From Planctomycetota bacterium (GTDB lineage: Bacteria; Planctomycetota; SZUA-567): 12,072 bases of DNA. Below the pieces are notes generated by a model, which was given only the letters and a program-made list of their open reading frames with translations, had not been told where the DNA came from and searched no databases. This document shows positions 505-12,072 of the stretch, one piece after another; the stretch's first letter is position 1; every line of letters begins with the position of its first letter. The stretch is taken from the NCBI GenBank assembly GCA_031254915.1, contig JAIRTL010000009.1, positions 1 to 12,072 on the forward strand. Direction: 5' to 3'. The translations under genes and the position numbers were made by a program.

Positions 505-2088
505 ATGCCAACCGACGAGGAACTCGATCTGTTGCAGTCCGGAAAACGCTTTCCCCCCAGGAATCCGAAAAAGGGCAAATGGGCCAGGAAGGCGATAAAG
601 ACGATGATTATGGGAACGGCACTGGCGTTCGTCGTCGCCCTCCTCGTCTTTGTCGGCCTGTTCATATGGTACGGCTGCCGGATCGAGCCGGAAGGCGACC
701 AGATCGCCATCCTGATCCGCAAAACAGGCGAGGACCTCAAGGCCAACGAAATCATCTCCACCCGCGACGGGCAGAAAGGGATCAAGCTCGAAACCCTCCC
801 CGCCGGTCGCCACTTCTACAACCCGTACGACTGGGACTGGCAGCTCGCGACCGTCACCAACATCCCGGCCGGCCGCCTCGGCGTGGTGACGCGCCTGTAC
901 GGGGACGAACTCCCCGAGGGCGAGATCATCGCGCCCCCCGGGTTCAAGGGGATCGTCGAGGATATTCTTCGCCCCGGCAAGTACAGGATCAACCCGTACG
1001 CCGAACGGGTCGAAGTGTTCGACGCGATCACAATCCGTCCCGGTCATGTCGGCGTCGTCGCCAACCTCGCCGGCAGGGATCCCCTGCACAGCGATCTTCC
1101 CCCGGAAATGAAAAACGTCTTTATCGTCGGCGAAGGCGTCAAGGGGGTGCAGGACAGGACGCTGGGCCCGGGGACGTATTATCTCAACCCCTATCTCCAT
1201 TCGGTCGTGGAGGTGAACCTCCAGAGCCAACGCTTCGCCCTTCAGGGCGAGGACGCCATCTCCTTCCTCACCCAGGACGGCTTCACCGTCGTGGTCGAGG
1301 GGACGCTTGAATTCGCGATCACCCGCGACAGGGCGCCGCAACTGACCAACCAGGTCGGCGACATGGACGACATTCTCAAGAAGATCGTCCTTCCGAAGGC
1401 GCGCGGCTTTTCGCGGATCGAGGGAAGCAAGCACCCGGCGATCGACTTCATCGTCGGCGAAACGCGGCAGGAATTCCAGAACCGGCTTGAGCAGAACCTG
1501 ATCGCCCAATGCGCGCGCTGGGGCATCGACATCCGCTCCATGCTGATCCGGAACATCACTCCGCCCGCCGAGGTGACGGCGATCATCCGCGAGCGCGAGG
1601 TCGCGCTCCAGAACCAGAAGAAGATCGAGCAGCAGATCGAACAGGCGCGGTCGCAGGCGGAACTGACCCGCCAGGAGATGCTTGCCGTCCAGAACCGGGA
1701 AAAGGTGGAGTCGGAGACGGCGGCGATCCGCGCCCGCATCCAGGCGGAACAGGAGCAATCGGTGAAGATCACCTCGAGCATGCGCGAACTCGAGGTCGCG
1801 AAGCTCGAGGCGGAGGCGGCGAAGCTCCAGGCCGACGCCATCATGATCCGGGCCGAAGCCGACCGCGACGTGGTGAAAATGCGGAACACCGCCGAGGCGG
1901 ACGTCGCCAAGGCGATGGTGGACGCGTTCGGCGGCGGCGTGGACCTTGCCCGCTACACGCTCTACAAGAAAACGGCGCCGCTGATCCAGGCGATCGTCTC
2001 CACCGATCGCGCGCCCGGGTTGGGCGGCATTTTCGGTTCGTTCGCGCCGAAGACGCCCGGCGCGGGCGGCGGCGGACAGGGACGCTGA
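505..2088 (+). CDS. Flotillin-like SPFH/band-7 family membrane protein (paralog A): N-terminal TM/hairpin segment, three tandem PG-x-Y-x-NP repeats, SPFH core, long EA-rich coiled coil, Gly-rich C-tail.
   Basis: The 527-aa ORF has a purine-rich SD (GAGGGA) 8 nt upstream of the ATG. A hydrophobic segment MIMGTALAFVVALLVFVGLFIWYG follows a K/R-rich N-terminus. The SPFH-core-like block is FLTQDGFTVVVEGTLEFAI ... IDFIVGETRQEFQNRLEQNL ... GIDIRSMLIRNITPPAEV. The C-terminal heptad-like EA repeats (LEVAKLEAEAAKLQADAIMIRAEADRDV) are typical of flotillin/FloT/YqiK. The antisense 454-aa ORF 394..1758 is a GC artefact. Confidence 0.85.
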   Translation: MPTDEELDLLQSGKRFPPRNPKKGKWARKAIKTMIMGTALAFVVALLVFVGLFIWYGCRIEPEGDQIAILIRKTGEDLKANEIISTRDGQKGIKLETLPAGRHFYNPYDWDWQLATVTNIPAGRLGVVTRLYGDELPEGEIIAPPGFKGIVEDILRPGKYRINPYAERVEVFDAITIRPGHVGVVANLAGRDPLHSDLPPEMKNVFIVGEGVKGVQDRTLGPGTYYLNPYLHSVVEVNLQSQRFALQGEDAISFLTQDGFTVVVEGTLEFAITRDRAPQLTNQVGDMDDILKKIVLPKARGFSRIEGSKHPAIDFIVGETRQEFQNRLEQNLIAQCARWGIDIRSMLIRNITPPAEVTAIIREREVALQNQKKIEQQIEQARSQAELTRQEMLAVQNREKVESETAAIRARIQAEQEQSVKITSSMRELEVAKLEAEAAKLQADAIMIRAEADRDVVKMRNTAEADVAKAMVDAFGGGVDLARYTLYKKTAPLIQAIVSTDRAPGLGGIFGSFAPKTPGAGGGGQGR

Positions 2089-2089
2089 A

Positions 2090-2809
2090 ATGCCGGAGGA
2101 AGCAGGCGCGCCCGGCGATCGCGCGGAAGCGGTCCCCCGCCACCTCCGGATCGACGGCTTCGACGCCTATGTGAAGGCGGACGGAACCGACTACTGGCGG
2201 ATTCTCCGCACATTTTTGCATGGCGGCGTCGAAGCGGAGAATCTGAAGCACAACCGCGGCAAGCGCAAGGTTCACGCGTTCGATTTCGGGGGCAGGCGCT
2301 ACGTCCTCAAGCGCGACCTGATGCGGAGTCTCGGCCTGCGCCACGTTTTTCCCGGCGGCGGCTGGACCTACCACACCAGGATCATGCGCAAGGTCAACCG
2401 GGCGGTCGATCTCGGCTGCCGCGCGACGCCGGACATCTATCTGGTCGCCGAGAGGTGGAAAGGGAGGTTCCGGCAGGAAGCGTTCGTTCTCATGGAATTC
2501 GTCGAGGGAACGATACTGAGGGACGCCGGCGACGCGGGGAATTACCGCGACGCGATCCGCGAGGCGATGCTGGAAATGCACCGGTTCGGCCTCACGCTGT
2601 CGGACGTCAACAGCCGGAATTTCCTGGTCGGTCCGGACGGGGTGAAAGTGATAGACATCGCCTGCCGCTTCCCGGATTTCCTCTCGATCATCAGGGACGG
2701 GCTCAAGGTCAAGGCGCGGTATAACGTGGAATTGCCGGTCACCGGGCTCATGAACCGGTTCTTTGGATTCGCCATAGCGGTTTTTTACACTCTACGCGGG
2801 AAAACATGA
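2090..2809 (+). CDS. Small protein-kinase-like fold protein of the Kdo/WaaP/InaA lipopolysaccharide-kinase (RIO-like) type, embedded between the two SPFH genes.
   Basis: The 239-aa ORF starts 1 nt after the stop of the upstream gene (TGAaATG) and has an AGGGA SD. It has a Gly-rich loop plus Lys (AFDFGGRRYVLKRD) and a hinge-like acidic/hydrophobic motif (FVLMEFVEGTIL). The catalytic-loop-like block GLTLSDVNSRNFLVGPDGVKVIDIA parallels KdkA ICHTDLNAHNILL...LLDFD (D and N conserved, His replaced by Leu). The C-terminal tail GLMNRFFGFAIAVFYTL is hydrophobic. Comparison to KdkA and PF06293 is from memory, not a search. Confidence 0.7.
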   Translation: MPEEAGAPGDRAEAVPRHLRIDGFDAYVKADGTDYWRILRTFLHGGVEAENLKHNRGKRKVHAFDFGGRRYVLKRDLMRSLGLRHVFPGGGWTYHTRIMRKVNRAVDLGCRATPDIYLVAERWKGRFRQEAFVLMEFVEGTILRDAGDAGNYRDAIREAMLEMHRFGLTLSDVNSRNFLVGPDGVKVIDIACRFPDFLSIIRDGLKVKARYNVELPVTGLMNRFFGFAIAVFYTLRGKT

Positions 2810-4674
2810 TGCGCACAAACAACACAAACGGACTGCATGGGGATACGCCGATGAAAGACGCCGACGTCACCGCCATCACCACGGAAAATACGCTGAAAAA
2901 GGGAGGGCCGGGCTTTCTCCGCCGCCGCTTCGGCCTGATCGGCGGCGCGATCGTCGTTCTCGCCGTCCTTTGGGCGATCTGGTCGTGGGGCTTTTGCCGC
3001 TTCTACGTCGGCCCCGGCCAGATGGCGATCATCACGGCGAAGCGCGGCGATCCGCTGGAATCGGGACAGATCCTCGCCAGGCCGGGACAGAAAGGCGTGC
3101 TCGAAGACGTGCTTGGCGAAGGCAGGCACATCTGGAACCCGGTCTTCTACGACTGGGAGATCGTCGACGCCCAATACATTCCGCCGGGGAAGGTCGGCAT
3201 CCTGACCTCGCTCGTCGGCGAAGACCTTCCCCCCGGCGAGTTCCTCGCCGAACCGGGGCAGAAAGGCATCCGCCGGAAAGTCCTCGGTCCGGGCATGTAC
3301 CGCCTGAATCCGCGCGGCTACAGCATCGAGGTCATCGACGCCATGAGCATCCCCATGGGGTTCGCCGGCGTCGTCACCTACCTCAGCAGCGGCGATCTGC
3401 CGGCGAGCGCCTTCGTGAACGACAACGCCGACGAAAAAACCCGCCGCGACATTCTCCAGCCCGGCATCTATTACATCAACCCCCGCGCCCACCGGGTCAA
3501 CGCCGTCGAGGTCGGCGTCAACCAGGTTTCACTTCAGGGGCAGGACGGAGGCATGATCCTCACCAAGAGCGTCACCTTGGACGAAAACAACCTCATGATG
3601 CAGCGGCTGAACCAGAACATCCTCGCCGAACAGCGTCGGCAGCGCGCCGTCTACCAGCAGGACAGGCTGGGCGAGCAAAGCGCCGACCATTCCATCATGG
3701 CGGAAATGATGAACGACCCCGGCGCGCCCGCCAGGGGAATGCTCCGGAAGTCGCTGCCGTCGGCGCAGGCCCCGGGATCGGTCGACGGCCGCGCCATTTC
3801 GCTGGAAAGGGACGTGGCGCCGGCGATCGTCCTCGACCAGTACGTCAACTTCCCCTCCCGGGACGGCTTCGACATCCGGCTCGACATGACGGTCGAGTTC
3901 GAGCTCCGGCCCGAACATCTCGCTTCGATCTACAAGGTGTACGGCGACCTTCCGAGCGTGGTCGACAAGACAATCATGCCGCAGATCCTTTCCATCTCCC
4001 GGAACAAGGGTTCCGCCTACCGCGCCGTCGACTTCATCGCCGGCGAAGGCAGGGAGAAATTCCAGAACGACCTGACCGACACGCTCAAGGAATCGCTCGG
4101 CAAGGAGGACATCACCATCCACAGCGCCCTCATCCGCAACGTCAACGTCCCGGACCAGATTCTCGAACCGCTCCAGGTCGCGTCCCTGTCGCGCGAGACG
4201 GAACTGACCAACCGGGAAAAGCAGAACACCGCCCGCAAACAGGCCGACCTCAACCGGGAAATGTCGCTCATCAAGCAGTTCGGCGAGCAGGTCATGCAGG
4301 AGACGACCAAGCTCAAGGCCGAGATCGACGCCGAGCGCGAAAAGACGGTGGCGATGATCCAGGCGGACACCCTCCGGCGCATGGCGGCGATCGACAGGGA
4401 AACGGCCGGCGTCAGGGCGCAAAAGGTTGTGGCCATCGGCGAGGCGGAAGCCGATGCGCTGCGTCTGATCGAAATGGAACGCGCCATGGGCTTCGGAATG
4501 AAAGTCGCCGCCTTCGGCGCCGAAAGCGAAAATTTCGCGCTCTACGAATTCGCCAACAGCCTCAACCCGGAAATGCGCATCAACCTGCTCCACGCCGGCG
4601 AGGGAACCCTGTGGACGGACCTGCAGCGCGCCGGCGTCGGCGACCTCGGCGGATCGACGCTGCTGCGCGAATGA
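2806..4674 (+). CDS. Flotillin-like SPFH/band-7 family membrane protein (paralog B): same architecture as paralog A plus an ~85-aa Q/R-rich insertion before the SPFH core.
   Basis: The 622-aa ORF start ATGATG overlaps the kinase stop (ATGA), indicating translational coupling. An alternative start is M16 (nt 2851). A TM-like segment GLIGGAIVVLAVLWAIWSWGF follows KKGG..RRR. Repeats PGQKGVLEDVLGEGRHIWNP.., PGQKGIRRKVLGPGMYRLNP.., LQPGIYYINP.. mirror paralog A. The SPFH core FPSRDGFDIRLDMTVEFEL...VDFIAGEGREKFQNDL...ITIHSALIRNVNVPDQI aligns to paralog A residue-for-residue. The C-terminal coiled coil is EA-rich. The alternate-frame R/P-rich 583-aa ORF 2970..4721 and the antisense 400-aa ORF are artefacts. 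Confidence 0.85.
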   Translation: MMRTNNTNGLHGDTPMKDADVTAITTENTLKKGGPGFLRRRFGLIGGAIVVLAVLWAIWSWGFCRFYVGPGQMAIITAKRGDPLESGQILARPGQKGVLEDVLGEGRHIWNPVFYDWEIVDAQYIPPGKVGILTSLVGEDLPPGEFLAEPGQKGIRRKVLGPGMYRLNPRGYSIEVIDAMSIPMGFAGVVTYLSSGDLPASAFVNDNADEKTRRDILQPGIYYINPRAHRVNAVEVGVNQVSLQGQDGGMILTKSVTLDENNLMMQRLNQNILAEQRRQRAVYQQDRLGEQSADHSIMAEMMNDPGAPARGMLRKSLPSAQAPGSVDGRAISLERDVAPAIVLDQYVNFPSRDGFDIRLDMTVEFELRPEHLASIYKVYGDLPSVVDKTIMPQILSISRNKGSAYRAVDFIAGEGREKFQNDLTDTLKESLGKEDITIHSALIRNVNVPDQILEPLQVASLSRETELTNREKQNTARKQADLNREMSLIKQFGEQVMQETTKLKAEIDAEREKTVAMIQADTLRRMAAIDRETAGVRAQKVVAIGEAEADALRLIEMERAMGFGMKVAAFGAESENFALYEFANSLNPEMRINLLHAGEGTLWTDLQRAGVGDLGGSTLLRE

Positions 4675-6046: not shown

Positions 6047-6063
6047 AACCGGATCCATACCAT
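6036..6063 (+). promoter_or_regulatory. Sigma70-like promoter candidate for the downstream small gene: -35 TTGACA (6036-6041, inside the last codons of rsmI), 16-bp spacer, -10-like TACCAT (6058-6063).
   Basis: Hexamers read directly from the sequence. The -10 lies inside the 26-bp palindrome. Promoter consensus for this unknown lineage is assumed to be E. coli-like. Confidence 0.3.
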
Positions 6064-6077
6064 ATATGGTATGGATC
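6052..6077. promoter_or_regulatory. 26-bp perfect palindrome GATCCATACCATATATGGTATGGATC. Candidate repressor operator with an NrdR-box-like AT core. Alternatively an RNA hairpin between rsmI and the downstream ORF.
   Basis: Perfect dyad symmetry verified base by base (6052-6064 pairs with 6065-6077). It sits 6 nt after the rsmI stop, overlaps the putative -10, and ends 20 nt before the start codon of the NrdD-like ORF. The central 16 bp ATACCATATATGGTAT matches about 12 of 16 positions of the NrdR-box consensus acaCwAtATaTwGtgt as I recall it. Confidence 0.4.
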
Positions 6078-6096: not shown

Positions 6097-6420
6097 ATGC
6101 AACTTATGGCGTTTTACGAACACGTGGAGAAGCACCCGGAACTGGAAGGCTTGGGGATCGAGTCCGGTTGTGTCGACAAGAGCGCGGGGGTGATTGTCAA
6201 AAATACCCAAAACAATCTCATGACCCGTCTGCCGGTCGCGGCGATCGAAGCGGCTGACTGGGATGTGATCGAGGATGTGCTCCTTGGCAAACGCGAACCG
6301 CAAGTGTTGCAGCACATGACCCGTGTCGTCGGTTACTTCAGCCGGGTCGAAAACTGGAACAAGTCCAAGGTCGGCGAACTCAGGGACCGCCACAAAGGCG
6401 ATTACTCCGTCGCCGGCTAG
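6097..6420 (+). CDS. Stand-alone glycyl-radical-domain protein homologous to the C-terminus of anaerobic (class III) ribonucleotide reductase NrdD. Possible spare-part or autonomous glycyl radical cofactor analogous to GrcA/YfiD.
   Basis: The 107-aa ORF has an SD AAAGGGA 7-13 nt upstream. The C-terminal motif TRVVGYFSRVENWNKSKVGELRDRHKG matches the NrdD glycyl-radical signature (T-R-V/I-C/V-G-Y ... N-x-G/S-K ... E ... D-R). The same RVxGY motif is shared with PFL and GrcA. There is no catalytic barrel or Zn-ribbon Cys cluster, so it is not a full NrdD. Confidence 0.65.
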   Translation: MQLMAFYEHVEKHPELEGLGIESGCVDKSAGVIVKNTQNNLMTRLPVAAIEAADWDVIEDVLLGKREPQVLQHMTRVVGYFSRVENWNKSKVGELRDRHKGDYSVAG

Positions 6421-6735: not shown

Positions 6736-8994
6736 TCAGCCGCCAATGAGGCGTTCGAGTTGGATTCTTGCGTTACGGAGCGCTTCGGCGGGCGTTTCTT
6801 TTCCCGAGACGGCGGCGTAGACCGCGCCGCCGAGGATGTTTTCGAACACCCGTTCCTCCACTTTTCCCCCGGTCGTGACTTTCGAGATGTTTCGTTCCCG
6901 GCTTTTGGCGAAGCTTTCCACCGATTTCGGCAGCCACGGATACAGGGCGCAGAGTTCGGAGTTGTGATAGACCTTGTTCGCGGGCGGCGCGCCGCCGAGT
7001 ATGGCGAGCGGGATCACGAGGTCTTGGTCGCAGGTCCAGCCGATGAAATCGAGCGCCGAATCGCGCGACCGGCTTTCGCGGTTGACCCCTAAGGTCCAGC
7101 CGCCAAGCATCGGCTTGCCGCCGGGGATGATGTCGTACCCGATGCGCCCGACCACCTTCGAGACGCGCCGGTCGGCGAGCGACGACACGTGCGCGAGGAA
7201 GAGGATCATCATCGCGGCCTGGCCGTCGCCGAAAAGCGCGGCCTGTTCATCCCACCAGAAGTCCTTCGAACCGGGCGGCGCGTAGCGGTAGCTTTCGGCG
7301 TAATTGGCGAGCGCGGCTTCCGCCTCGCGGCTGGCGAGGGAGTCGAGCATGTTTCCAGCCCCGAACGCGCCTTCGTGGAACGAGAGGAAGCGGGGCAGGA
7401 ATTCGCACACCGCGCCGTTCGGGTATTGTCCGCCCAGGGTGGTTCCGTATTCGGTCGGCGAATCGGGATTGAGCGATCTGGTGAAAAACGCCGCGATCTG
7501 ATTGAATTCGTGCCAGTTCCTGGGTGCGCGCAGTTCGTAACGGTAGCGCTTCCGGAAAGCGAACTTGAGGTGCGGGTCGTCGAACAGGTCCTTCCGGTAG
7601 AAAAGAATCTGCGCGCCGAAGAGGAACGGCACGGTATAGCATTTCCCCCCGTGCCGGCAATAGGCGTCGAGCACGCCGGGCAGCCAGGCCGAGGCGAGGC
7701 CGGGGCGGCTGTCGAGCCAGGCGTCAAGCTGGTGGAGAAGGCCGTCCTCGGCGGCTTCTCCGAGCCAGGGCTGGTCGACCTGGAAAATATCGTATTGGGA
7801 GCGCCGGGCCGGATCGCGCAGCAGTTCGCCGATCTCCACGACCGAGCGCTTGTCGATCTCCACCCTGACGCCGGAATTCTTCTGGAACGCGGGAAGCAGC
7901 GCCTCCACGGCCGAGCAGGCGCCGCCGGCGAGCATGAGCGCGCGCAGCACCCTGCCCCGTCCGCGCAGCCTTACCGATTTCCCGATCGTCGGGCCCTGGT
8001 CGGCGTCGAAGCGGGCGTTGTCGACGATCCGCCGCCTGTTCTTCGCGTCGTCGCTCCCGGAAAGCATGCCCAGAAGCAGCGCGGCCGCGCTTTCGCCAAG
8101 CTCCATGGCGTCGCGGCGCAACACCCTCGCCCCCACCGGCGACGCCGGCGCCCAGGATTCGATGCCTAGGCACACAAAGGCGGGCCCGTTGTCGAGTTCG
8201 AGCATCTTCACCGCCTGCCGCGCTCCGGCGAGGAGCTGGCTGGAGGTGGTGATGATTACGTCCGGCGGCGGCGCGACGCCGAGCCTGGAGACAAGTGCGC
8301 TAAAGGCGCTTTCCTTGTTGAAGTTCGTTTCGACCACCAGCCAGTCCCTCGGCGTCCCGCCAAAACGGTCGCCAAGGCCGTCGAGAAAACCGGCGGCATA
8401 GCCGGCTTCGCTCGAATTCTCGCGCGGTCCGGCGAGAAGCAGGGGATTGCGGCAGCCCTCAGCCAGCAATTGGCGCACAAGGTCGCGCATATGCTTTTCG
8501 CCGTCGAAGCCGACGAACGGGAAGACGCGGCGATGCGGCTCGCGCTCGACGAAAACAAACGGCGTGCCGTTGTCGTAGACGCTCTGGAACATCGAGGCGG
8601 AATCGGGCTGGCAGGTGACGATGACGATGCCTTCGGCGTTCTGCTTCACGAACTGCCCTATCGCGCGCTGCTCGCGCGCCTGAATCTCCGAAGTGGTGCA
8701 GAGCTGGACGACATAGCCGTTTTCGCTCAATACCTGGTTGACGCCGGCGTAAATGCCGGCGAACGTGGCGTCCTGAACCGACGGCAATACGACGCCGATG
8801 CACCTGGTCTTTCTCGCCTTGCCGCCGGAACGGGCGGGAAAATGCGCGCGGTAGCCGGTCTTGCGAATCGCCGCCTGAACGCGTTGGACCATGGACAAGC
8901 TGACCCGGCGATCGCCCTTGAGAACATTCGAGACCGTGCCGACAGATACGCCGGCCGCCTCCGCAACGTCCTTCATCGTCGCCTGAAGCGCCAT
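6736..8994 (-). CDS. Fusion transcriptional regulator: LacI-family HTH + LacI-type (PBP type I) sugar-binding domain + a complete family-1 extracellular solute-binding-protein (MalE-like, PBP type II) domain.
   Basis: The long minus-strand ORF is 770 aa from the first in-frame Met at 9048. The likely true start is MALQATMKDV (nt 8994) or MKDVAEAAG (nt 8976), giving about 750 aa. HTH: MKDVAEAAGVSVGTVSNVLKGDRRVSLSMVQRVQAAIRKTGYRAH, a canonical LacI/PurR motif. Residues about 80-340 have the LacI ligand-domain pattern (IGVVLPSVQDATFAGIYAGV...YVVQLCTT...IVIVTC). Residues about 370-770 show SBP_bac_1 features (FQKNSGVRVEID..., YDIFQVDQPWLGE, YTVPFLFGAQILFYRKDLF, WWDEQAALFGDGQAAMMI, GGWTLGVNRES). 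There is no signal peptide, so it is cytoplasmic. The overlapping plus-strand ORFs (e.g. 7189..8169, 8470..9435) are artefacts. Confidence 0.8.
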   Translation of the reverse strand: MALQATMKDVAEAAGVSVGTVSNVLKGDRRVSLSMVQRVQAAIRKTGYRAHFPARSGGKARKTRCIGVVLPSVQDATFAGIYAGVNQVLSENGYVVQLCTTSEIQAREQRAIGQFVKQNAEGIVIVTCQPDSASMFQSVYDNGTPFVFVEREPHRRVFPFVGFDGEKHMRDLVRQLLAEGCRNPLLLAGPRENSSEAGYAAGFLDGLGDRFGGTPRDWLVVETNFNKESAFSALVSRLGVAPPPDVIITTSSQLLAGARQAVKMLELDNGPAFVCLGIESWAPASPVGARVLRRDAMELGESAAALLLGMLSGSDDAKNRRRIVDNARFDADQGPTIGKSVRLRGRGRVLRALMLAGGACSAVEALLPAFQKNSGVRVEIDKRSVVEIGELLRDPARRSQYDIFQVDQPWLGEAAEDGLLHQLDAWLDSRPGLASAWLPGVLDAYCRHGGKCYTVPFLFGAQILFYRKDLFDDPHLKFAFRKRYRYELRAPRNWHEFNQIAAFFTRSLNPDSPTEYGTTLGGQYPNGAVCEFLPRFLSFHEGAFGAGNMLDSLASREAEAALANYAESYRYAPPGSKDFWWDEQAALFGDGQAAMMILFLAHVSSLADRRVSKVVGRIGYDIIPGGKPMLGGWTLGVNRESRSRDSALDFIGWTCDQDLVIPLAILGGAPPANKVYHNSELCALYPWLPKSVESFAKSRERNISKVTTGGKVEERVFENILGGAVYAAVSGKETPAEALRNARIQLERLIGG

Positions 8995-9254
8995 CACTCC
9001 GCCCCCGTCCAAAAATCCGGCCCCGACCCCGGCTCCATGCTTTCGCACCCGCCCTCACCCCGGATCGGCGTTTTCAGCCGGGAGGACGGATGGAGCGATA
9101 CCGCTTCCAGCCAATTAGTGCTTTTTTGCGTCCTTGCAGCTTCCCGCGTTCCACTTCGCGCCATTGTTTTCGAGGGCGTTGGACCAGTCGAGGGAACGGC
9201 AACTTTCGACCGGAAAAGGCATGCGCCCGTTTGTTGTCGCAATCCCCCGCGCTT

Positions 9255-9277
9255 CCCGGGCCGCTGCGCGGCCCGGG
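9255..9277. other. Very stable GC hairpin CCCGGGCCGC-tgc-GCGGCCCGGG (10-bp stem, 3-nt loop) inside the 440-bp spacer between the transporter operon and the regulator gene.
   Basis: Perfect inverted repeat 9255-9264 / 9268-9277, with no adjacent U-tract. A second, longer-range inverted repeat GAGAACGCGG (9334-9343) / CCGCGTTCTC (9396-9405) lies between it and the binding-protein gene stop. Confidence 0.3.
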
Positions 9278-9431: not shown

Positions 9432-10403
9432 TTAGAAGCGCGGCGGGTTCTTGTACATGGCGCTGGTATCCTTGTCCAGGATACGGACGCCGGTGTCGAT
9501 GCCGGCGACGGGTACGTGACCGAAGCCTTCGAACATCGAGGGGATTTCGGTGGGGTGGTGCGCGGCATAGGCGAGCATCATGGCCTGGTAGCCCATGAGG
9601 TAAGGGTTCTGGCCGACGGTGCCCTTGATTTCGCCCTTTTCGATGAGTTCGATGACGGGGAGGCCGAAGTCGAAGGCCATGATCTGGACCTTGCCCTGGA
9701 GGCCGAGGGAGCGGACGGCGGCGGCCGCGCCGGGGCCGGGGTTGCCGTGGGCGCCGAAGATGCCGTTGATTTCCTTGTTGGCCTGGAGCATGGCGGTGAG
9801 CTGCGTTTCCGCCTTGGCGACGTCGCCTTCGTCGTTCACGACCGCGACGATCTGGGCGCCGGGCGCGACTTCCTTGAGGCCGGCCTCAAAGCCGTCCTGG
9901 CGGTTCTTGAGGTGGTCCGGGCCGGGGAAGGTGCAGATGCCGATGCGGGCGTCGTTGCCGAGCCATTCACCCATCGCCTTGCCCGCTTCGTAGCCGGCCT
10001 GGTAGTTGTTGGTGCCGACGAAGCACAGGCGGTTGGAGGCGGGAGCGTCGGAGTCGAAGGTGATGACCGGGATCTTGGCGCGGATGGCGCGGTTGATCGC
10101 CGGGACCAGGGTGTTGGCTTCGCCGGCGGTGACGATGACGCCATCGATCTTCTTGGCGACGAGCTGTTCGATGGCGCGCGCTTCGAGGGTGGCGTCCCAT
10201 TCGGCCGGGCCGTGGAGTTCGGTCTTGACGTGGGGGCCGATCGCCGCGGCGGCGTCGATCATGCCGGCATACGCCCAGTTGAAGAATTCGGAGCCCTTGA
10301 GGAACACGACCATGCCGTAGGTCTCGGTCGGACGCTCTTCGGCGCATGCCGGGGCGGCGAACGCCGCGAGCACGACCAATGCCGCTACCAGAAGTTTCTT
10401 CAT
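9432..10403 (-). CDS. Sugar ABC transporter periplasmic substrate-binding protein (RbsB-like, ribose/xylose/arabinose PBP type I family) with N-terminal signal peptide.
   Basis: The real start is MKKLLVAALVVLAAFAAPACAEE (ATG at 10403), preceded by a perfect AGGAGG 7 nt upstream (plus-strand CCTCCT 10412-10417). The 5' extension of the track ORF to 10949 is Arg-rich junk. The mature domain MVVFLKGSEFFNWAYAGMIDAA...IDGVIVTAGEANTLVPAINRAIRAKIPVITFDSD...GTNNYQAGYEAGKAMGEWL is typical RbsB-type. The AAPAC sequence is not a canonical lipobox, so it is probably SPase I-cleaved. Confidence 0.9.
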   Translation of the reverse strand: MKKLLVAALVVLAAFAAPACAEERPTETYGMVVFLKGSEFFNWAYAGMIDAAAAIGPHVKTELHGPAEWDATLEARAIEQLVAKKIDGVIVTAGEANTLVPAINRAIRAKIPVITFDSDAPASNRLCFVGTNNYQAGYEAGKAMGEWLGNDARIGICTFPGPDHLKNRQDGFEAGLKEVAPGAQIVAVVNDEGDVAKAETQLTAMLQANKEINGIFGAHGNPGPGAAAAVRSLGLQGKVQIMAFDFGLPVIELIEKGEIKGTVGQNPYLMGYQAMMLAYAAHHPTEIPSMFEGFGHVPVAGIDTGVRILDKDTSAMYKNPPRF

Positions 10404-10474: not shown

Positions 10475-11434
10475 TCATTTCCGCCGGCGGTTGAACACGA
10501 ACTCGCCCACGAGCACCGCCAGAAGAAGCATGCCGCCGTTGACGATGTCCTGCCAGTAAGTGGAGATGCCGGTCATGACGAAGGAGCCGTTCACGACGGC
10601 GAGGAAAAGCACGCCCAGAAGCGTCGACAGAATGGTGCCGCTGCCGCCGGAGAGGCTGGCGCCGCCGACGGCGACCGAGGTGATGACCTTCATCTCGGCG
10701 TTCTGCCCGAACGAATTGTTGGCGGCGCCGTATTGCGCGGCGACGATCACGCCGGCGACGCCGGCGAGAAGCGAGCACAGACCGTAGACGAAATAGCGCA
10801 TGCGTTCCACCCGGATGCCGCTCAGGCGGGCGGCGCGCTCGTTGCCGCCGATGAAGTAGACCTGGCGCACGTAGCGGTTGCAGCCGAGGAACACGGCGGC
10901 GAGGACGGCGAGGACGGCGAAGAAATACATGGGGATGGGGATTTCCCATAGGTACCCCTGCCCCATCTCCTGGAAGGGGTCGGGGAAGCCGAACAGGGTG
11001 CGGCCGTCGGTTATGGCCAGGTTGAAGCCTTTGAGGGTGAGCATCATCGCCATGGTGACGATGAACGGATGCACCCTGAGCAGGTTGATCAGTTTGGCGT
11101 TGACGAGCCCGATCGCGATCGAGGCGACGAGGGCGATCGCGACCGCGAGTCCCCAGTGGAGCCCGGCGTTCATGCCCATTGCCGCCGCTATCGCCGCCAT
11201 CGGCAGAACGGCGCTGATCGAAAGGTCGATGCCGCCCGTGATGATGACGAGCGTCATGCCCAGAGACATGATCGCTTCCGGGAGGAAGGACATGAGCGTC
11301 ACCTCGATATTGAACGGCGACAGGAATTCCCCGTAACGCGACGCCATGACGACGATGATGACGGCGTTGGCGAGGATGAGGCCGATGTACTGGAGAGGCA
11401 GACGCTGGAACAGCGATTTGTCAGTTGGCCGCAT
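10475..11434 (-). CDS. Sugar ABC transporter permease (RbsC/AraH-type, BPD_transp_2 family)
   Basis: The 319-aa polytopic membrane protein carries the motif MTLVIITGGIDLSISAV and the family-typical block GGNERAARLSGIRVERMRYFVYGLCSLLAGVAGVI. Its start ATG (11434) overlaps the upstream ATPase stop by 14 nt, indicating translational coupling. Confidence 0.9.
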   Translation of the reverse strand: MRPTDKSLFQRLPLQYIGLILANAVIIVVMASRYGEFLSPFNIEVTLMSFLPEAIMSLGMTLVIITGGIDLSISAVLPMAAIAAAMGMNAGLHWGLAVAIALVASIAIGLVNAKLINLLRVHPFIVTMAMMLTLKGFNLAITDGRTLFGFPDPFQEMGQGYLWEIPIPMYFFAVLAVLAAVFLGCNRYVRQVYFIGGNERAARLSGIRVERMRYFVYGLCSLLAGVAGVIVAAQYGAANNSFGQNAEMKVITSVAVGGASLSGGSGTILSTLLGVLFLAVVNGSFVMTGISTYWQDIVNGGMLLLAVLVGEFVFNRRRK

Positions 11435-12072
11435 AGCGCATCACCTTGGTCTGGGAAAGATTGTCGTTCTGCAAGTCCGCGGACACGCCGCCGTTCCGGA
11501 ACACGAGCACCCGGTCGGAGAGTCCCAACACCTCGGGGAGTTCAGACGAGATGACGATGACGCCGACGCCGCTTTCGGCGAGCTGTCTCAGGTACTGGTG
11601 GATTTTCACTTTCGCGCCGATGTCGACGCCGCGCGTCGGCTCGTCGGCGACGAGGATGGTCGGCTTCGCCGCCAGCCATTTGGCGAGCATCGCCTTTTGC
11701 TGGTTGCCGCCGGACAGGTTGATGATGTTGAGGGTGTCGTTTCGGGGACGAATGTCCAACAACTCGAGGAAATCCTCCGAAACCGCCCTGACCTTGTCGA
11801 AATCGAGGAACTGGAGCTTCGACGAATAGGCGGGCAGGGACGACGAGGCGATGTTCCGCCGCACCGACATGGTGAGGAACAGCCCGAACAGCTTTCTGTC
11901 CTCGGACAGGTAGCACACGCCCTGGCGGATCGCGTCCCCCGGACCGCGAATATCGACTTCGCGGCCCCGCAGGACGATTTTGCCCGAAGACGGCCGTTCG
12001 GCGCCGAAGACGGCGCGCGCCGTTTCCGTCCGGCCGGAGCCGACGAGGCCGGCGAAGCCGAGGATCTCGCCT
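11421..12072 (-). CDS. Sugar ABC transporter ATP-binding protein, RbsA/MglA-like with two NBDs. Only the C-terminal second NBD lies in the window (5' end beyond the window edge).
   Basis: Reading frame is open to the window edge. Second-NBD Walker A: GEILGFAGLVGSGRTE. Signature LSGGNQQK, Walker B ILVADEPTRGVD, then VIVISSELPEVLGLSDRVLVF and a C-terminal ...MRYAAN stop at 11421. The track ORF 11421..11918 is just the Met-initiated tail of this frame. Confidence 0.85.
   Translation of the reverse strand, partial: GEILGFAGLVGSGRTETARAVFGAERPSSGKIVLRGREVDIRGPGDAIRQGVCYLSEDRKLFGLFLTMSVRRNIASSSLPAYSSKLQFLDFDKVRAVSEDFLELLDIRPRNDTLNIINLSGGNQQKAMLAKWLAAKPTILVADEPTRGVDIGAKVKIHQYLRQLAESGVGVIVISSELPEVLGLSDRVLVFRNGGVSADLQNDNLSQTKVMRYAAN

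Follow-up and report, generated by a model that had tools for sequence, protein, structure and literature searches.

A conserved LacI–SBP fusion protein

We analysed a stretch of 12,072 nucleotides from a Planctomycetota bacterium (contig JAIRTL010000009.1 of assembly GCA_031254915.1; the entire stretch is hereafter called the window), in which one unbroken open reading frame (ORF) on the minus strand (6736–8994) encodes a protein of 752 amino acids (aa) that combines a LacI-type repressor with a solute-binding protein (SBP) domain of ATP-binding cassette (ABC) transporters. ORF calling and translation placed the ATG start codon at position 8994, with GGAG ahead of it, and the stop codon at 6736–6738; the gene is complete and the original prediction had its coordinates exactly right. 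The encoded protein consists of a LacI-type helix-turn-helix (HTH; aa 6–49, positions 8848–8979), a hinge with the atypical sequence FPARSGGKARK (aa 50–62, 8809–8847), a LacI core with the type-I periplasmic binding protein (PBP) fold (aa 63–325, 8020–8808), a polar interdomain linker of 23 aa (aa 326–348, 7951–8019), and a family-1 SBP domain of the CUT1 type with the type-II fold (aa 349–752, 6739–7950), all encoded on the minus strand. Pfam matches were above the respective gathering scores for LacI (PF00356; aa 6–49, 50.9 bits vs. 27), Peripla_BP_1 (PF00532; aa 65–263, 57.2 bits vs. 22.2), SBP_bac_1 (PF01547; aa 362–653, 77.9 bits vs. 26), and SBP_bac_8 (PF13416; aa 368–680, 72.3 bits vs. 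27), and a Peripla_BP_3 match reached aa 322. The domain search thus bears out the proposal that a LacI HTH, a type-I PBP core, and a complete family-1 SBP domain reside on a single polypeptide, including the match of its C-terminal region to SBP_bac_1. The N-terminal half groups with the LacI-family proteins Cra, MalI, RbsR, and PurR in NCBIfam, yet all scores are far below the equivalog cut-offs and the fusion protein is therefore not a known orthologue.

An AlphaFold2 (AF2) model of the fusion protein, derived with 42 homologues, had a predicted local distance difference test score (pLDDT) of 89.1 and a predicted template modelling score (pTM) of 0.78, with disorder (pLDDT <50) confined to the hinge (aa 51–60) and the middle of the linker (aa 335–340). 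Both halves of the model matched the expected folds in Foldseek searches. The N-terminal half aligns with CcpA, RbsR, PurR, and CelR, and the C-terminal half superposes on solved CUT1 SBPs, best on 5IAI (template modelling score 0.86) and then on 1EU8, MalE3, 4RYA, and SmoF. Neither sequence nor model contains a signal peptide or a membrane segment. In the model, the most hydrophobic 19-mer (aa 349–367, Kyte–Doolittle 1.64) corresponds to the first strand and the first helix of the SBP fold, and the linker, which is 18–30 residues long in 41 of 42 members, has no hydrophobic stretch. Because the linker is polar and both signal peptide and membrane segment are absent, the fusion protein is cytoplasmic; the lack of a signal peptide had been proposed beforehand and is confirmed here.

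A homologue search among 5.8 billion proteins recovered 113 full-length homologue clusters (680–790 aa) from Planctomycetota, Bacillota, and Candidatus Moduliflexus, which have the same domain set at identities down to 26%. When one genome per species was scanned with an SBP-only profile, 396 relatives were obtained, and the best 80 loci were inspected by tblastn. A single alignment over query residues ~5–750 was obtained in each of these best 80 of 396 loci (80/80); the LacI part is thus attached to the SBP domain in every one. Altogether, a single fusion ORF was present in 81 loci, which are the basis of the family-wide neighbourhood and operator counts given below. The fusion occurs in Bacillota, Spirochaetota, Planctomycetota, Alphaproteobacteria, Calditrichales, and Actinomycetota. 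Hosts recovered by the genome scan include the clostridial Christensenellaceae, Lachnospiraceae, and Oscillospiraceae, as well as Sporomusa, Paenibacillus, Paucilactobacillus, Spirochaetota, Calditrichales, Acetobacteraceae, Neorhizobium, and one metagenome-assembled genome (MAG) of an Actinomycetota member. Homologues of the clade to which the window protein belongs are 58–68% identical to it.

This distribution bears directly on the possibility that a frameshift, a sequencing error, or a chimeric assembly fused a lacI-type gene with a separate SBP gene, to which we give practically no credence. Nothing speaks for such an artefact: the lone homologue that appeared to have lost the HTH, P0012 (681 aa, L090 ~9790–10001), had its start called too late, and its ORF extends upstream with MADQVTMKAVAATAGVSVGTVSNVLKG, which restores the HTH. 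The same ORF recurs across different phyla and assemblers, and its presence in 113 clusters and in all of the best 80 loci rules an artefactual fusion out and identifies the gene as a genuine fusion in homologous loci. No orthologous locus with separate lacI-type and SBP genes was seen among the loci compared, and the closest relative without a fusion, P0114 (28% identity), is an ordinary secreted SBP with a signal peptide. The architecture had been described as uncommon, which holds relative to the whole LacI family; it is, however, not a one-off, but a real, conserved, and widespread family of putative sugar or polyol regulators that spans multiple phyla. Proteins of this family are named 'extracellular solute-binding protein', 'PurR', or 'hypothetical protein' in public records, and we found no description of a natural LacI–SBP_bac_1 fusion in the literature searched. 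Two other elaborate regulators based on binding proteins adjoin the family member of Candidatus Moduliflexus (L003, 2795–5518 and 16927–19878), one of 907 aa that joins LacI to two Peripla_BP_1 domains and a SpoIIE phosphatase, and one of 983 aa with Peripla_BP, PAS, and histidine kinase domains.

Divergence of the LacI core and conservation of the SBP domain

Mean pairwise identity within the family was 0.58 for the HTH, its most conserved region, 0.37 for the SBP domain, 0.27 for the LacI core, which is the least conserved folded part, and 0.10 for the linker. Effector-contact residues of the core were mapped by alignment of the family to the E. coli LacI sequence, whose marker residues checked out. 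Residues were compared for 42 aligned members, 182 unique family proteins, and, as control, ten ordinary LacI genes from the same loci. The equivalent of Arg197 (E. coli LacI numbering) is Arg in all ten controls and in none of the 42 aligned members (C, F, A, L, Y, or S are seen instead; Tyr199 in the window protein), and the seven commonest residues at this position, which account for 177 of 182 family proteins, include no Arg. Asp is present at the Asp274 equivalent in 33 of 182 family proteins, as compared to 8 of 10 controls, and the Asp247 equivalent, the Asp of the 'ND' motif, is lost in the family and retained in 8 of 10 controls. Judged by this alignment, the LacI core is without the canonical effector-contact residues Arg197, Asp247, and Asp274. 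Two sugar-binding modules had been predicted; both domains are indeed present, but a second sugar site of the classical kind is doubtful because the core has lost these residues, with Arg not seen at the Arg197 equivalent.

An alternative, and the main idea proposed beforehand, is a dual-sensor integrator, in which the LacI cleft and the SBP cleft would bind different small molecules (e.g., a pathway intermediate and the transported substrate) and the repressor would answer their combination. Both two-lobe domains are intact and confidently modelled, and the cleft-lining loops of the core hold family-specific conserved residues (T127-C128-Q129-P130, E196, and E228) that argue for a retained, non-canonical function of the core cleft. 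The same motifs are equally explicable as an interface with the SBP domain, the Arg found in all controls is gone from the family, the Asp274 equivalent is mostly lost, and the core has diverged more than any other folded part. We regard dual sensing as unlikely, albeit as the most probable of the alternatives considered. A role of the SBP domain as the sensor is supported by its better conservation than that of the core (0.37 vs. 0.27).

The closest solved relatives of the SBP domain in profile and structure comparisons were 5IAI (Agrobacterium Arad_9887, solved with ribitol; profile E = 1e-47), 1EU8 (a trehalose/maltose-binding protein), 4RYA (with 'Sorbitol' in the depositor's name), and SmoF. 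In Foldseek comparisons, the AF2 model resembles closed, liganded forms of SBPs more than apo forms. Invariant or near-invariant residues of the domain include D402, D407, W410, Q462, E531, and R535, together with the YRKDLF motif, and further conserved family motifs include FFTR..NP.SP..YG, WWDEQ, and LGGW. Several of the conserved residues fall in segments that line the cleft of MalE-type proteins, although this mapping is uncertain. The insertion that contains FFTR is common to the fused domain and the secreted relative P0114, and two weak non-fused matches, P0117 and P0118, are annotated as sorbitol/mannitol SBPs. The fused domain probably descends from secreted polyol- or glycoside-binding transporter proteins. 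Given the polyol-binding solved relatives and the dehydrogenase and kinase genes in the neighbourhood (see below), the ligand may reasonably be guessed to be a sugar alcohol or a related glycoside, although this does not go beyond a guess.

Compared to secreted CUT1 SBPs such as 5IAI, 4RYA, 1EU8, and SmoF, the fused domain has the same fold, clear homology, and the YRKDLF motif. It differs from them in that it lacks a signal peptide or lipobox and is located behind a transcription factor, and in that the fusion gene of the window is not encoded with CUT1 permeases (BPD_transp_1). Being cytoplasmic and not encoded with such permeases, the fused SBP domain cannot act as a transporter receptor.

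Gene neighbourhoods and a predicted family operator

Neighbours of the fusion gene are consistently carbohydrate or polyol genes. Most frequent in the 81 loci are genes for CUT2 ABC ATPases (n = 43), Peripla_BP_4 SBPs (n = 31), and CUT2 permeases (n = 26), followed by FGGY kinases (n = 17), CUT1 permeases and SBPs (n = 13–15, each such locus with its own separate SBP), xylose-isomerase-like TIM barrel proteins (n = 13), zinc-dependent alcohol dehydrogenases (n = 12), URO-D-like proteins (n = 11), OYE proteins (n = 10), GFO/IDH/MocA proteins (n = 9), GDPD proteins (n = 9), and SDR proteins (n = 7).

The window itself contains the 3' part of a CUT2 transporter operon on the same strand as the fusion gene, in the order ATPase 3' end, permease, SBP, hairpin, and regulator gene. 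The ATPase gene (11421–12072, minus strand) is cut by the window end, and the translation of its 3' part includes LSGGNQQK and a second ABC domain. The permease (BPD_transp_2; 10475–11434, minus strand; PF02653, 127.5 bits) is ribose-permease-like, though below the curated cut-off. The secreted type-I SBP (Peripla_BP_4; 9432–10397, minus strand; PF13407, 210.7 bits) begins with the typical signal peptide MKKLLVAALVVLAAFAAPACA, and its gene is putatively among those regulated by the fusion protein. NCBIfam gave only matches far below the cut-offs for the substrate of this transporter (rhizopine, rhamnose, and ribose SBPs and a lactaldehyde-reductase-like alcohol dehydrogenase). A GC-rich inverted repeat, CCCGGGCCGC-GCA-GCGGCCCGGG (9255–9277, minus strand), forms a hairpin between the SBP gene and the regulator gene, and analogous hairpins, some followed by T-runs, are located at L001 ~9925–9960, L088 ~8940–8975, and L089 ~6295–6335. 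As hairpins separate the transporter SBP gene from the regulator gene throughout the clade, transcription of the latter may depend on read-through of a terminator or on a weak promoter of its own.

The adjacent transporter had been predicted as rbs-like, which its identification as a CUT2 system bears out, and an interaction of the SBP domain with this transporter had been suggested. Such a domain could dock on the adjacent ABC transporter, or the protein could span the membrane and sense an external solute, and the position of the fusion gene directly downstream of the transporter operon in the window and its clade would be in line with this. A domain of a cytoplasmic protein without signal peptide or transmembrane segment, however, has the periplasmic docking face out of its reach, and the CUT2 transporter has its own secreted type-I SBP, while the fused domain is of the CUT1 type. 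Even where the fusion gene adjoins a CUT1 transporter, the SBP encoded nearby shares no more than 22–23% identity with the fused domain. We thus consider a function in transport highly improbable, and the suggested interaction is not upheld.

The complete gene order in the clade comprises an iron-containing alcohol dehydrogenase (Fe-ADH), RbsD/FucU, permease, ATPase, permease, Peripla_BP_4 SBP, and the fusion gene, and is present in L001, L086, L088, and L089. The transporter part, from RbsD/FucU to the SBP, is kept in L091, which has no recognisable Fe-ADH gene, and in L090, in which the transporter genes are located upstream of the fusion gene and are oriented divergently from it. The AT-rich region of 520 bp between this divergent transporter operon and the regulator in L090 includes a repeated TATAATCGAA.

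Elsewhere in the window, at 505–4674 on the plus strand, a gene for a WaaY-like kinase (239 aa) is located between two SPFH/Band_7 genes (527 and 622 aa), after which come genes for a Tag methyladenine glycosylase and a tetrapyrrole methylase; all of these are apparently unrelated to the regulator. A perfect palindrome of 26 bp, GATCCATACCATATATGGTATGGATC (6052–6077), separates the end of the TP_methylase gene from a 107-aa ORF (6097–6420, plus strand), the C-terminus of which weakly resembles the glycyl-radical tail of NrdD (PF13597, 24.6 bits, just under the gathering score). The G+C content of this part of the window drops to ~0.55.

Operator discovery was based on CG-centred palindromes in the intergenic DNA of the 81 loci. 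The palindrome TGNNACGTNNCA occurs at 53 intergenic sites, as compared to 1.63 ± 1.15 in shuffled intergenic DNA, and has 12 genic occurrences, which corresponds to a 25-fold higher density in intergenic than in genic DNA. Sites are present in 48 of 81 loci and extend to a 16-bp palindrome with the consensus ATTGAAACGTTTCAAT. About 30 lie no more than 500 bp upstream of the fusion gene, of which several precede its start codon by 22–27 nt or fall in a region common with a divergent transporter operon, and about 12 directly follow the fusion gene, ahead of the next operon (AP_endonuc_2, GDPD, SBP, or OYE genes). The register of the palindrome is one base off the cre consensus of CcpA, the palindrome is also found in Alphaproteobacteria and Spirochaetes, and an ordinary LacI gene is nearby in only 10 of 81 loci; for these reasons, it is best assigned as the predicted operator of the fusion protein itself. 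Two MAGs hold paralogous pairs of fusion genes. In one of them, the predicted half-sites differ (TGAAACGTTTCA in L010 and TGACACGTGTCA in L045), which would be consistent with divergence that avoids cross-talk; in the other, L038 carries TGACACGTACCA and L041 has no site.

Two operator copies are located near the gene in L042, L048, and L057. Paired sites in these few loci would suit a non-sensing SBP domain that serves as a structural or oligomerisation module, for instance by joining dimers for DNA looping, with the effector acting elsewhere. The domain is indeed located at the C-terminal end of the core, in the place of the LacI tetramerisation helix. Nevertheless, conservation across many phyla is high for the whole two-lobe fold, also in the segments that form the cleft lining of MalE-type proteins, which is beyond the needs of oligomerisation, and the closest relatives of the domain are all ligand-binding proteins. 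A purely structural role is therefore improbable in our assessment.

A LacI-type palindromic operator, as had been suggested for the transporter operon, thus exists family-wide, but was not found in the window or in seven loci of its clade. Allowing at most one mismatch, the window has a single match to the cre-like TGNNANCGNTNNCA (9096–9109), which is below the chance expectation of 3.8, and two matches to TGNNACGTNNCA, both genic. Inverted-repeat scans of the 437-bp region upstream of the fusion gene returned the GC-rich hairpin only, and the aligned Fe-ADH upstream regions of the clade have no convincing common palindrome. A 12-mer comparison of the intergenic regions of the clade yielded the recurrent ATGGCGCGC, which was rejected as an operator because it is part of the terminator-like hairpins after the PBP gene.

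The hinge of the window clade is likewise unusual. In LacI, Leu56 of the hinge helix acts as a lever, which enters the operator at its central CpG. Leu is conserved at the equivalent position in 168 of 182 family proteins, but is replaced by Gly58 in the window protein and by G or N in the members of its clade, the hinges of which are rich in Pro and Gly (e.g., FPARSGGK and PPRANNK; clade homologues P0005, P0009, and P0011). With neither a Leu lever in the hinge nor the family operator in the eight clade loci scanned, DNA recognition by the window protein may differ from the LacI paradigm, and the change of the hinge together with the absence of a CG-centred operator may reflect a switch to another way of recognising DNA.

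Proposed regulation and comparison to known systems

We consider it fairly probable that the fusion protein is a one-component repressor, which acts on neighbouring genes for the uptake and catabolism of sugars or polyols and senses its ligand mainly through the cytoplasmic SBP domain. The analysis shows a conserved domain architecture in a cytoplasmic protein, a core that has lost its canonical contact residues, an operator common to the family, and recurrent gene neighbours; that the SBP domain binds a ligand, to which class this ligand belongs, in which direction regulation runs, and by which path the signal travels are what we infer beyond these observations. The LacI HTH would bind DNA, in most clades at ATTGAAACGTTTCAAT in its own promoter or 5' untranslated region and/or in the promoter of the neighbouring operon. 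With its canonical effector contacts gone, the type-I PBP core would mainly be a dimeric allosteric scaffold, and the family-1 SBP domain, free of export signals, would be the main small-molecule sensor. Closure of this domain on an intracellular sugar, sugar alcohol, or glycoside would be passed on as a change to the core, and DNA binding would be released or altered such that the adjacent uptake and catabolism genes are de-repressed. These genes would be those of the CUT2 transporter in the window, and additionally those of Fe-ADH and the RbsD/FucU mutarotase in the orthologous loci.

Several points weigh against this interpretation. No operator was found in the clade of the window protein, the hinge of which is Pro-rich and without the Leu lever, and its putative target is deduced from synteny only. 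A position weight matrix built from the 53 family sites scored at best 9.2 over eight loci of the clade, as compared to at least 11 for true sites, and the promoter of the transporter operon of the window lies beyond the window end. The SBP domain joins the C-subdomain end of the core, which is far from the DNA and is not the moving part in the LacI/PurR paradigm. Because the family motifs lining its cleft are conserved, the core might accommodate another ligand or form contacts with the SBP domain. Lastly, the mapping of ligand residues from MalE, at ~20% identity, was too uncertain and was not used as evidence. A more specific version of the proposed repressor is put forward as tentative, with slightly less than even expectation that it is correct in full: the LacI scaffold would have lost its canonical effector site, with sensing taken over by a captured cytoplasmic, possibly polyol-specific SBP, and the window clade would additionally have abandoned operator recognition by Leu lever and CpG.

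The fusion shares with LacI/GalR repressors (E. coli LacI, PurR, and RbsR; Bacillus CcpA) the N-terminal LacI HTH, the type-I PBP core, and the location of its genes next to sugar transport and catabolism genes, and most family members keep the hinge Leu and a predicted palindromic operator with central CG. It differs from these repressors by ~400 additional C-terminal residues that constitute the type-II binding-protein domain and by the absence of the canonical effector residues Arg197 and Asp274, and the window clade furthermore by a hinge without Leu and by the lack of a recognisable operator. In SgrR/DsvR, a DNA-binding domain is fused to a transporter-type SBP_bac_5 domain that is a cytoplasmic sensor of sugar-related metabolites (PMC13060122). 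The fusion protein follows the same design principle of an HTH combined with a cytoplasmic SBP, but has LacI instead of SgrR_N, an SBP of family 1 instead of family 5, and an intervening LacI core. SgrR_N and SBP_bac_5 were not among the Pfam matches of the fusion protein; the likeness is in design alone and implies no homology. Engineered chimeras of periplasmic binding proteins and bacterial DNA-binding domains have been built as ligand-responsive regulators (Juarez et al. 2018, PMC6079105). In contrast to these synthetic chimeras, the fusion described here is natural, ancient, and widespread, and keeps a LacI core between HTH and SBP.

Recognition of the family corrects the systematic mis-annotation of its members under the three names given above. 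With its predicted operator and recurrent gene neighbours, the family lends itself directly to experiments in cultured hosts, for example Sporomusa acidovorans, Neorhizobium alkalisoli, Christensenella, Hungatella effluvii, and Paenibacillus medicaginis. If our interpretation is true, type-II binding proteins of transporters can be recruited into the cytoplasm as sensors of LacI-type repressors, which would be a second natural route, besides the SgrR type, from an SBP to the ligand domain of a transcription factor. The family would then be a natural counterpart of the engineered biosensors that join periplasmic binding proteins to DNA-binding domains, and a natural template for biosensor design, in which an SBP specificity module is placed on a LacI DNA-binding chassis.

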